A DNA stretch of 63,057 nucleotides, counting the filler, from Octopus bimaculoides (Eukaryota): assembly GCF_001194135.2 (NCBI RefSeq). It is 4 parts of 3 records of this genome, joined end to end, with 100 filler letters (N's around TTAATTAATTAA, not from the genome) between each part and the next. Parts side by side here need not be neighbours in the genome. Positions count along the whole stretch, not along the records: positions 1 to 19,284 come from NC_068982.1; positions 19,385 to 44,407 come from NC_068994.1; positions 44,508 to 49,872 come from NC_068982.1; positions 49,973 to 63,057 come from NC_068983.1. One strand, given 5' to 3'. The first letter of the stretch is position 1, and each line of letters opens with the position of its first letter. Made by a program: the position numbers and the translations under genes. Below, in pieces: positions 13,271 to 50,061 of the stretch. The notes below the pieces were generated by a model that was not told where the DNA came from, did no database searches, and was given only the letters and a program-made list of their open reading frames with translations.

Positions 13271-13500
13271 AGAGCTGGCAGAAACGTTAGCACGCCGGGC
13301 GAAATGCTTAGTGGTATTTCATCTGCCGCTACATTCTGAGTTCAAATTCCGCCGAGGTTGACTTTGCCTTTCATCCTTTCGGGGTCGATAAATTAAGTAC
13401 CAGTTACGCACTGGGGTCGATGTAATCGACTTAATCCATTTGTCTGTCCTTGTTTGTCCCCTCTATGTTTAGCCCCTTGTGGGCCATACAGAAATAAGAA
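13271..13500 (+). mobile_element. tRNA-derived SINE (OK-like), near full length, with TSD
   Basis: GAGCTGGCAGAAACGTTAGCACGCCGGGCGAAATGC..; flanked by AAGAATGGAGACACATCGG at about 13252 and 13496. Confidence 0.9.
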
Positions 13501-13511
13501 TGGAGACACAT

Positions 13512-14083
13512 CGGTGGGAAGGGTGCCACCGATGAAGCAGACTGAGGCTCCCCCCCCCTGTGAGTGGGACAGTGATTGCATTGTCTTCTACCACAGGGGT
13601 GGGGTCGTGGAGTGCTACTTGGATGGCATACTGGACCGTGAACAGTGTGAGTCCGGGTGCCTGGACTATCCAAAGTGGCCTCCACAGGTGTAAGCGGAGG
13701 TTCTGAGCAACACAGAGTTGTTCAAGATAATGGCCTCCTTTAGAAAGGAAGATTTTCAATTCCTTGGAATAGGCCCCGATTTGTCGCAGCAGGCTTGCCT
13801 GCGGGCGGCATAAAAGTTGCTCGGGGAGGAAGTTTAAGAGGCCTAAGCGCCTATTCATTGATTATTAAATCATGTTATTTTGACTGTTTGATTTGATTTG
13901 ATTGTACGTAATTTGAATTGTAAAAGAACAGTGATTTCGAGGGGTTTTCGGTCGGCGGACGCCGAATACCCCTCCCATTTATAACGTTCGCATTTTGTCA
14001 TTTCTCATTCATTAATGTAAATGTCCAGCCCGTTTTGCTTCTATGTAAGGCCTTCATGGCCAATTTCCATGAAATAAAGAATA
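13512..14083 (+). mobile_element. 5'-truncated Tx1-like element: ORF1 C-terminus, 3' UTR and AATAAAGAA tail
   Basis: ..LDYPKWPPQV*AEVLSNTELFKIMASFRKEDF resembles IKDPDWPLQVSAEVMSSRHI at 59400-59500; hairpin GAGGGG..CCCCTC in the UTR. Confidence 0.5.
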
Positions 14084-14093
14084 GAGACACATC

Positions 14094-46374: not shown

Positions 46375-46600
46375 CCATTTTCCCGCTCATCAATCACTAT
46401 TTTGTTGGACTCCCAATAGTCTTAGAGTAATTGTTTGAGACAGCTTGTGTAAATTTTATACACCATATTTAAGGTAGCAACATGCTTGTAGTTTTCTGCC
46501 AAGTGGATGTTTTCATTCTTAGCAACAAGATTTCTTCGTTCTATGACAAGCCAATTTGATATGTCAATTTGAGCTAACATAATTCTTTTAAATATTCGTG
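46375..46600 (-). mobile_element. R4/Dong RT fragment
   Basis: KNENIHLAENYKHVATLNMVYKIYTSCL, equivalent to RT domain 1 (NYRPI..LN..YK). Confidence 0.65.
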
Positions 46601-48539
46601 AATGATTTTCTGTGAAACATCAACATCTTACACAAATATCCAATTATTAAGACTCTTCCTGATGCCTCTTTATTATGCAGCTTTCCATAGCATATGAATA
46701 TATTTGTATGTATGAATGCATCAATATATGTATGTGTGTATATATGCATGTATGAATGTGTGCAAGTATTATGCATGTATGCAATTATGCATTTATACTT
46801 TATGAAGCAAAATTTCTCAGTAGGGAGCTTATGACCCACAGAACGTTAACAGGTATGTTTATTATAGGGCTTCATATCTGGCAAAAGAAGATAAGATAAC
46901 CACTACGATCAAAAGATCGGCAGTTCGTGTCCTGTCAACGTCGCTGTGTTTGTAACAAAGATGATTAAGTAACTGAAACAAGATTTAATTCATCCAATTA
47001 AAAATAAGTTTAACTGAATGATACAACTAACAGTTATCATTGTTTAGCTCCATGTCGGCGCTGATTGAGCAGGCCTATGGACATCCTGTATTTTTGAAGG
47101 GTATTGATTTCCAGGACTATGTTAACCTGAATATACATGTCTACGTCTTTGCCTTCTATTTCTTCCTATACAGCGACAGGATAGAGGCTCTCTTCGACTA
47201 GTCGATGCTGTTATAGAAAGAAATGTTATCAATGGAAGTGCTGTTGAGGGAAGATGCAACTACTGTCGGGGTTTTACCCACGCAAAGTGCTCAACTTTGC
47301 ACTTTTAAATAATAAAACATTCTGTATGTATACAATGCAATATAAAATTGCAAACATCATTTGTAGGAACCAACGAGAGAGCCTCTACGCAGATGAGGAT
47401 AATAGCAAGATACAGGCTCCTCTGAATCAGACACACTCTCTTTTCAGAGCTCACCAAATTGACAGTTCATCCCATTCATAAAAGGTGCTTTCGTTGTGTA
47501 ATGCAGGACTGTCCATGCCAAGCTTCGACATATTCAGAACGGATGGTACTATCAAAAGTCAGATGAACGCTACCTAAAATACTGGATAGAGTAGTGCCTT
47601 TTAATATTATTATCTATAATACACATATAAAGCTACCAAAAGTGTACCTAGATAGTTTTTCTCTTCAATGCCAGAAAATACTAGTTTTAAACAATTTTCT
47701 GAAAATACGAGTGTGGTATATATTTAGGGCAGTATTCATAAAAGGATGATTTATCACACAGAAGTGCAAAAATGGATTCTGTACAGGATCTTATAACAAT
47801 TTGTGTACAACCCACTTCATTCTACCTCAATTCCAATTGACCCATAATAGTAGATTATTTAACCCTTTCACTGCACAGGGTATTTCCGACTGGCAGATCA
47901 ACATCGAATTCAATTTCACAGACCCAAAACATAAACACCAAGCAAGAATATTAGTTAAAATTCTGTGGGGAATTTTCTTAAGCGACAGCACTTCAGTAAA
48001 ACTTTTTCTATAAGTATATTAATCTCAGTGGCAATAAAGGTCTCTGAAGACATTCTCCCTGACCCATCTATCAATACATTGAGAATAGGAGCTTCTAGAT
48101 ATTTAACATTCTGTACAATGGCTTAGAATTCCGAAGAAAATACTTCAGCTACTTCAGTTATATTAATATAAGACAGTACAAAACTTATGATCTACAAATC
48201 AGACATTACTCACTGTAAATGCGTCATTTTCATTTCCTTTATCATTCAGTTCATCAAAAATACATTGACTAAAAGGAATATCATTTTTTTCTTTCTGGTC
48301 CAAGCCTTCTGGTTCAAGCCGATAGTATCAATAGCTTTTCCATTTGTTCTAATAATTTACGAGAGTAATTCATTTGTATCGCACTATTATGTAGCTTGCT
48401 ACATTGAGCTGTTTTTATTTTCTCTGCATACTTCATGATCATGCAAAAATCGAAGCAATTTGTGCTGATGGGTGGCAAACACACAAGTGTTATGTATATG
48501 TGTATGTGTGTGTGTACATACATACATACATACATACAA

Positions 48540-49668
48540 GCAGTGCCAGTATCATATCAACATTTGGGCTGCTTGATAAGATCCGAGCCCTTTATGTGAA
48601 AACCCGAAAAATACTAACGAGCACACATAATTTCCACATAAACAGTGACGTAGACCGCCTCAACCTAAAACGAAAACAAGGCGGCAGAGGCTTAACATTG
48701 ATCTAAAATTCCTTCGACAACATCTTTTAACCACCAAGTCTCGAAGTGCATCTTTTGACTAAGCTTGCATACATGAGGCTGGTAACATCATAAGACTTCG
48801 AAGGCAGTTCCTTGAGCAACACTCTTTGTCTGATAACCTAGAATACATGCCCAAAAAAATCGCAGGACTCTACTGCAACGTATCATCAGATGAAAGGATG
48901 AGCAGAAACTATGTATGCATGGATATGTTATTAGAATGCTCCAAGATGATTGTAACATTGATTATCAAAACAATCTATCATGGGCCAATAACCGGATTAC
49001 TACCGGCCACTTTCGAGGGTATGCGTTTGCAATCCAGGAACAGGAAATATCAACCGAATACCTGATTCACAAAATGAATAGAGACGCAGGAAAAGTAGTA
49101 AAATGTGACAACCGAAGCAGAATTTCTGGAGTTAACACCGAAGATATAACCCACATCATAAGCAGTTGTCCGAAAATGTCACCATGGTATTATCTACTGA
49201 TGAGGCATGAAGTTGTAGCTAGGATACTCTATAATGAAATCCGTCGGAAAAATAACCTTGAGGACAAATAAATAAGAACCCACAGTATGGTAGAAGCCAT
49301 AGCCACTCATATTAAAAAGGAATACTGGTGAAATGTCCCAGTGAGACCTCAATAGAATGTAAGCACAACAGATCTGAAATAATGACTTGGGATAGAGAAG
49401 AGAAACTGTGTACAGTTGTGGAACTTAGCTGCCCAGTGGATGCTAATATTAAATCTGAAGCTCAGTGAAAAAGAGAATACCTACGCTGAACCATTGAGAA
49501 ATCTGCAGTTACTCTATCTATAGTTTTATATCTGTAACTATTGGGGCCCTAGGATATGTAACACACGGCCTAAATACCAATCTTGAGAAATTAGGTTTCT
49601 CAAACCAAAAAGAAGAAAGCTAATTCGAAGACTACAGATCCAATCCATGACTGGCACTGTAAAAATCT
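48540..49668 (+). mobile_element. R4/Dong-clade LINE 3' portion (RT end, CCHC, RLE endonuclease)
   Basis: SDVDRLNLKRKQGGRGL, AIQEQEI, EDITHIISSCPKM..Y..RH..VA, KHNRSEI..ELSCP, VTIGALG; lies between (CATA)n and (TAGA)n. Confidence 0.88.
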
Positions 49669-50061
49669 GTAGATAGATAGATAGATAGATAGATAGATAG
49701 ATAGATAGATAGATAGATAGATAGATAGATAGATAGATTTCTTTATTAGCCACACAGGGCTCAACATAGATGGGACAAATACAATGTAGAGTTTTTCTTT
49801 TCGAGGGGACGAGAAAAAATGGGGATAACGATCAAAAGGTATCGAAAACGTTTGGGGTATGTGAAAAAAAAANNNNNNNNNNNNNNNNNNNNNNNNNNNN
49901 NNNNNNNNNNNNNNNNTTAATTAATTAANNNNNNNNNNNNNNNNNNNNNNNNNNNNNNNNNNNNNNNNNNNNCTGCGAGAAATGGAAGAAAATTTGAAGA
50001 AAGAAGAAAAAAAAACATAATAATAATAATAATAATAATAATAATAATAATAATAATAATA

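Follow-up and report, generated by a model that had tools for sequence, protein, structure and literature searches.

The stretch analysed here (hereafter the window) comprises 63,057 nt, fillers included, of the Octopus bimaculoides genome, joined from four parts of three records. It carries four elements with similar 3′ ends: a short interspersed element (SINE), an element with only the first open reading frame (ORF1-only), the 3′ end of a Tx1-like long interspersed element (LINE) and a further 3′ end, here element 4 (Table 1). A first-pass annotation had proposed that these share one tail and form a three-tier parasite system served by one Tx1 reverse transcriptase (RT). All four tails were found where it had placed them, offset by at most 1–2 bases; the quoted SINE tail is present, but the final AAGAA of the quotation is the start of the 19 bp target-site duplication (TSD) of the SINE. 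Within the window, blastn aligned the SINE tail with that of element 4 over 43 nt (81 %, E=1.8e-6) and with the ORF1-only tail over 37 nt (81 %, E=0.003), whilst a motif built from the four tails had exactly four perfect matches, which is a circular test. As the four elements sit in three unlinked stretches, their co-occurrence in the window carries no meaning, and they fall in three subsystems with different targets. The annotation had overlooked the head-to-tail tandem arrangement of the LINE end and ORF1-only element, which are flanked and separated by one 15-mer, ATCTCTAACAGACAA, with starts at 24832, 25184 and 26969 (three matches against 0.26 expected). The ORF1 of this ORF1-only element is broken (26304–26882 and 25881–26225) and has a weak CCHC knuckle, and the 5′ end of the element opens with a second target-like tag. 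The families discussed below are LINE lineages A, B, S1 and S2 and ORF1-only families A, B and C.

A 3′ signal of ~40 nt is common to the Tx1-like LINEs, consisting of a TGTCC motif, a predicted 4–5 bp hairpin with covarying arms and then AATAAAGAA. The same conserved, structured tail is also carried by a SINE and by ORF1-only elements, as had been claimed, and the similarity persists between genome-wide family representatives. These were 55–92 % identical over the ~36 nt tail core, compared to means of 45–48 % and maxima of 55–63 % for letter-shuffled sequences; only the LINE A/LINE S1 pair (55 %) failed to exceed its shuffled maximum. The highest core identities linked the SINE to ORF1-only C (92 %) and LINE S1 (89 %), followed by S1 and C (84 %), the SINE and S2 (78 %) and the SINE and LINE A (62 %). 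Upstream of the core, identity was mostly 38–57 %, with the exception of ORF1-only A and C (65 %). Because single tails mostly gave non-significant folding z-scores, stem conservation was assessed by permuting arms between families. A 4 bp Watson–Crick stem directly before AATAAA was present in 17 of 28 hand-picked tails, compared to a mean of 4.5 (maximum 11) for permuted arms and 3.1 (maximum 9) for shuffled tails, and when G–U pairs were allowed the stem was found in 25 of the 28, versus 17 in the control. No poly(A) followed the tail in any element set. An argonaut protein query returned 92 matches, from which 80 loci were fetched, 46 of them with the ORF2 end in range; the tail was present by eye in ~36 of these 46, the remainder being broken or gapped. 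Pairwise tail identity was 82 % in LINE A, 90 % in ORF1-only A and 96 % in B, with S1, S2 and C tails of similar age (91–92 %).

The LINE ORF2s carry an apurinic endonuclease (APE), an RT and a C-terminal zinc finger (zf-RVT). Those of A, B and S1 were 49–51 % identical over the region spanning the end of the APE, the linker and the N-terminal RT. Target classes corresponded to separate ORF2 clades, and no class mixed with another in the tree. Clan insertions were target-specific with TSDs, the targets being a hammerhead repeat, (ATCT)n, (ATT/ATC/AAC)n, two SINE-head sites, the head of a second SINE and apparently free sites (locus L188). The nearest solved structure was human L1 ORF2 (E=4e-22), with R2 at 6e-11, and the named best matches of the LINE protein were unannotated argonaut, cuttlefish and turtle proteins. 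A zf-CCHC match in ORF1 was weak (E=0.01, below the Pfam cut-off), and ORF1 look-alikes in Atlas belonged to CCHC and ZCCHC3-type RNA-binding clusters (0.90–0.93); Tx1 ORF1 has a CCHC knuckle, unlike mammalian L1 ORF1. The putative Tx1 membership of the clan rests on architecture. A further Tx1-like lineage was observed at loci L175 and L178 (G000:C2:153793819-153801545 and C17:35737555-35745281), where both copies (2/2) end at the same base in a second tRNA-like SINE head. Another clade, at loci L191, L203, L205, L208, L228, L229 and L233, has the same tail plan and ends in (ATT/ATC/AAC)n; the frequent (ATT)n ends of SINE tail class T3 (see below) make this clade a candidate partner.

Longer copies of lineage A carry ORF1, APE, RT and zf-RVT. 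The ORF1-only A family is 1.77 kb long, with TSDs of 14–16 bp in several copies, and an ORF2 match was absent in 30/30 family copies; ORF1-only elements in general retained ORF1, lacked ORF2, were full length between TSDs and were multicopy. The target words at which LINE A and ORF1-only A end are related and lie ~25 nt ahead of a hammerhead motif; four target subtypes cover 20/22 ORF1-only A and 20/24 LINE A copies, after removal of copies without an intact tail (8/30 ORF1-only, 5/30 LINE) and of one more LINE for N. What followed the target was either the hammerhead motif or a further clan member, beginning with its 5′ end. Among LINE A copies 13/25, and among ORF1-only A copies 10/22, had a hammerhead core 31–32 nt past AATAAA; the other five sets, 140 copies in all, had none at that distance. 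These lineage A counts derive from the hammerhead-distance and target-subtype tests, an automatic target classifier having given some false labels; a genome-wide pattern joining tail and hammerhead was too strict (one match) and was set aside. Empty sites exist, in that uninterrupted host repeats, with intact hammerhead forms, join the two flanks seen in the window, and the host repeat unit measures 330–359 bp where tandem. In 1.7 Mb of selected loci, strict parsing for a catalytic core and three stems recovered 21 distinct motifs with differing yet paired stems; three shuffled versions gave none. Rfam reported no hammerhead in the window, nor among the 150 of 164 matches listed for the selected loci. 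Of 24 empty host repeats (L142–L170), 14 had a TATA-like motif at a fixed distance, 31–33 nt upstream of the insertion site, and the target may be a transcription start. A full-length U6 small nuclear RNA (snRNA) match (Rfam, 99.9 bits) was also observed at L157:989-1093, ~400 bases from a hammerhead repeat copy.

Phylogenetic analysis of ORF1 (176 columns) placed ORF1-only A and C as sisters (support 0.992), apart from the ORF1s of LINE A and S1. As A and C use different LINE targets, partner switching is implied. The ORF1 of ORF1-only B instead grouped with those of LINE B (support 0.996), and the two share a 3′ UTR (untranslated region), such that ORF1-only B looks like a deletion derivative of LINE B. 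Lineage B copies end in (ATCT)n (27/29 by regular expression, two more degenerate), and of 30 loci ORF1 lay directly upstream in 13 and an ORF2 end with the same 3′ UTR in one. Element 4 matches this young family at 96–100 % in its best 20 matches, and, since an assembly gap lies upstream, its ORF1-only status is no more than likely.

The window SINE, short, non-coding, of high copy number and bounded by TSDs, resembles the OK family. Its head has A- and B-box-like motifs by eye, and neither ARAGORN nor Rfam gave a tRNA match for it. Since Rfam found neither, both the hammerhead and the tRNA labels rest on motif parsing. At least 6062 exact tails of the window SINE's class (T1) were counted genome-wide. 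The 30 closest relatives of the window SINE had mostly ordinary TSDs beginning AGA(A), with two at a SINE head. LINE S1 ended at the same base of the SINE head, GGTATTTCG, in 30/30 copies retrieved with a query lacking SINE sequence; by tail class, the hosts were five T1, six T2, nine T3 and ten unclassified. Host 5′ halves and TSDs were seen for S1, S2 and C, and for S1 they flanked both truncated and full-length copies. LINE S2 ended at a second site in the SINE head, AGAAWCGTTAGC, in the A-box-like region (19/25 copies by regular expression). ORF1-only C occupied the S1 site in 15/26 copies, and so did the SINE itself, with 477 exact tail/GGTATTT junctions genome-wide (the patterns behind the 477 junctions and the 6062 tails differ slightly). 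Among the first 100 of the 6062 tails, counted by hand, the S2 site accounted for ~41, ACAC-like sites for 15 and the S1 site for 6. A separate host head and TSD were seen in 3/30 SINE-in-SINE loci examined; the remaining loci would be accounted for by homologous joining of the 5′ end. In sequencing runs labelled organism E and organism F, one contig each bridged the S1/SINE junction. SINE tail-to-head junctions occurred among the RNA reads of one run, in which LINE depth was low and ends did not pile up. The proposed three-tier arrangement thus survives in altered form, with S1, C and the SINE sharing one site and having tails 84–92 % alike, but only the SINE of this trio lies in the window. 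We infer partner use in this set, a real three-tier one, from its shared tails and targets. A subset of ORF1-only C copies (loci L341, L343, L345, L355 and L359) is situated beside or within other, oppositely oriented ORF1-only or LINE copies; the flanks recur, and this is possibly another target.

Tail swapping on the SINE body, as suggested by the annotation, was supported: the body occurs with at least three different tails, joined to it at a sharp boundary, and its youngest copies bear the Tx1-type tail. Alignments of T1 SINEs to other copies end at ~position 161, and body identity was 89 % for T1, 82 % for T3 and 79 % for T2; T1 bodies being most alike, T1 is taken as the youngest class. 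The tails of the other SINE copies do form separate classes, T2 and T3, but are not unrelated, as they share a GGC-CTTGT-GCC hairpin with the ORF1-only A tail and may therefore be older tails of the same clan. Exchange of a SINE tail module is the likely explanation.

Table 1. Elements, targets and related repeats located in the window
Feature	Position	Strand	Remarks
OK-type SINE, tail class T1	13271–13495	+	A/B-box-like head, body, Tx1-type tail ~13455–13495
SINE TSD, 19 bp	13252–13270; second copy 13496–13514	+	Begins AAGAA
ORF1-only element family A, full-length, 1.77 kb	25199–26968	-	Tail 25199–25241
5′-truncated 3′ end of Tx1-like LINE lineage A	24847–25183	-	Last ~42 ORF2 codons, 3′ UTR, tail
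15 bp target copy 3′ of LINE end	24832–24846	-	
15 bp target copy between ORF1-only element and LINE end	25184–25198	-	
15 bp target copy 5′ of ORF1-only element	26969–26983	-	
Decayed minimal type I hammerhead motif	24778–24827	-	Core 25 nt past target copy start
Host repeat, 3′ part, interrupted	24609–24846	-	Unit ~357 bp, retrozyme-like
Host repeat, 5′ part, plus direct and inverted partial copies	26969–27584	.	
Lineage B 3′ end (element 4), most likely young ORF1-only family B	49739–49872	-	96–100 % to closest copies
(ATCT)n run, lineage B target	49670–49738	-	
Older SINE copy, tail class T2	15998–16202	-	
SINE copies similar to T2 copy	~436–644; 10415–10600; 43987–44157	-; -; +	
Older SINE copy, tail class T3	51731–51919	-	Ends in (ATT)n

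Other remnants were also present in the window. An RT fragment at 20411–20863 (+; Pfam RVT_1, E=0.007), ~4 kb from the hammerhead repeat, looks Penelope-like; when one Penelope-like RT fragment was tried against the fetched loci, no match and no link to the hammerhead repeat were found. A broken mariner-type transposase occupies 50568–51215 (-; HTH_48, E=4e-23), and ORF fragments at 11111–11563 (+) and 48395–49271 (+) resemble Helitron and restriction-like-endonuclease LINE pieces.

We consider it probable that the tail is a clan-wide signal and that passengers are copied by whichever clan member accepts it, landing at the target of that member. As each branch has its own fixed landing site, passengers likely borrow several related enzymes and not one. 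Passengers and LINEs share identical landing sites and ~15 bp TSDs, and the target data suggest that several LINEs accept the SINE tail. Under such a mechanism, ORF2 would bind the hairpin and its flanking motifs in a partly relaxed manner, with structure and position outweighing stem sequence, the endonuclease of each lineage would set the landing site, and the SINE would have acquired its youngest tail from the clan via module exchange.

Several observations weigh against this clan-wide signal. Folding of single tails was weak, with p≤0.05 in only 4/23, and tail identity was no guide to partner, the ORF1-only A tail being 76 % identical to the SINE tail and 68 % to that of LINE A. The S2 hairpin differs from that of the SINE, though the S2 site is the commonest SINE site. 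No defined target was seen for 27 of the window SINE's 30 closest relatives, and a non-specific clan member such as L188 may therefore carry many copies. For the SINE subfamily ending at ACAC no LINE was found, nor was one with a (CA)n target; of the T2 and T3 tails located in the fetched DNA (28 and 73), none belonged to a LINE. Homology searches returned no named Tx1 reference, and none is included in any tree. Lastly, family searches yield the best 40 candidates, and the sets lean to close relatives.

A live rival holds that the tail only docks ORF2 and that landing is set largely in cis by carried-over RNA, in the form of read-in or read-through tags that pair or prime at the next target. 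In keeping with this, target subtype is partly heritable in the endonuclease-less ORF1-only A family (22 copies; 6 changes on the tree, where shuffling gave 10.7 on average; p=0.0005), and several copies of the family share a 5′ target-like tag unlike their own 3′ target copy. SINE tail variants also track the site: among the first 100 of the 6062 tails (G000:C1), GGGTAGT variants were followed by ACAC, ACAA or ATAC in 15/15 cases, and all six GGTATTT junctions fell in one SINE subfamily. The TATA-like motif of the empty repeats points the same way. However, there are still six target switches among 22 ORF1-only A copies, targets closely follow ORF2 clades and RNA ends do not pile up, whilst links between subfamily and target are also possible through simultaneous activity of subfamilies and LINEs. 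On balance we regard landing by carried-over RNA as unlikely. Of doubtful standing is a broader scheme, in which the tail would be a universal dock for the Tx1 clan and the site would be programmed by RNA of the previous site; elements would land at the transcription starts of small-RNA repeats and borrow their promoter, and in lineage A the hammerhead would cut a poly(A)-free, target-bearing 3′ end. If true, enzyme-less passengers could inherit and switch targets, and LINEs and the SINE would target the SINE's own promoter.

Very unlikely, in our judgement, is an account of the tail as an inherited 3′-processing signal (AATAAA) and not an RT recognition site, with passengers using a relaxed L1-like route. 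AATAAA is indeed the most constant part of the tail and single hairpins are weak, but the stem arms covary across lineages and the tails are not followed by poly(A). Furthermore, the SINE is probably transcribed by RNA polymerase III, so a polymerase II signal would bring no gain. The single Tx1 RT of the first-pass annotation, mobilizing all four window elements, has the shared tail and the common site of the window LINE end and ORF1-only element in its favour, but must be considered highly improbable. The elements divide into three target classes matched by three ORF2 clades only ~50 % identical, tail ages differ (82, 90 and 96 %), 0/30 SINE and 0/29 B copies lay at the lineage A target distance, and the window LINE was the poorest match to the SINE tail of those compared (62 % versus 89 % for S1). 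A single RT for the window elements was thus rejected, since targets and ORF2 clades differ. Least credible are template-switch chimeras, or one master copy carrying a piece of SINE, as the source of LINE–SINE junctions, for although 27/30 SINE-in-SINE loci lack a separate host head, the junction fell at the same base in 30/30 S1 copies, in hosts of three tail classes and between host 5′ halves with TSDs around truncated and full-length insertions.

The clan-wide signal preferred here is built from ingredients that are each precedented, namely transposon-targeting Tx1 elements, ORF1-only derivatives, plant L1 tail pairs and retrozymes. In the crocodilian SINEU/Tx1-Mar system (PMC4494074, excerpted text), a Tx1 family likewise inserts into another mobile element, at a target that it has in common with a short passenger. 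That partnership is described as one by target only: no LINE with the 3′ end of SINEU-1 was found, and SINEU has a poly(A) tail and snRNA heads. In octopus, by contrast, the partners have a tail in common, and insertion is into the passenger family or into a hammerhead repeat. The same text reports Tx1L, Keno, Kibi and Koshi as families each likewise fixed on a repeat target, including microsatellites and transposons; it names neither tRNA-type SINE heads nor hammerhead repeats as targets. Structured SINE/LINE tails held in common are rare in the L1/Tx1 group; a 2013 review, in its excerpted text, lists three, all plant or algal. The L1-clade pairs of maize, sorghum and Chlamydomonas (PMC3747384, in excerpt) likewise share a 3′ end of ~45–80 nt with a compensatory hairpin stem, whereas the octopus elements are animal, site-specific and without poly(A). 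HAL1, HeT-A and Ag-Sponge have also kept ORF1 and a 3′ end and lost ORF2, with L1, Jockey and CR1 as parents according to the excerpts of PMC5753468 and PMC5786205. Tx1 is not among these parents, and in contrast to HAL1-type deletion derivatives, ORF1-only A and C form an ORF1 lineage of their own at two different LINE targets. The host repeat resembles metazoan non-LTR (long terminal repeat) retrozymes (PMC7229834, excerpted text) in its 330–359 bp unit, type I hammerhead motif and partly tandem arrangement; the excerpt makes no mention of LINE targeting. Its inverted partial copies also fit the Penelope-like ends described in the excerpted text of bioRxiv 2021.04.23.441226.

A literature search found no description combining these ingredients, and Repbase, Dfam, supplements and subscription papers may already hold the families. 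The present analysis contributes a clade-wide covariation test, places every window element in a lineage and points to an ORF1-only lineage that switches partners. A LINE inserting in the promoter region of its own likely passenger would be an unusual turn in a host–parasite relationship. In one genome, related enzymes form a natural series: the tail is the same throughout, the targets number at least six and passengers cross between enzymes. With one tail and many targets, RNA recognition and target choice could be separable, a point relevant to target change in site-specific LINEs.

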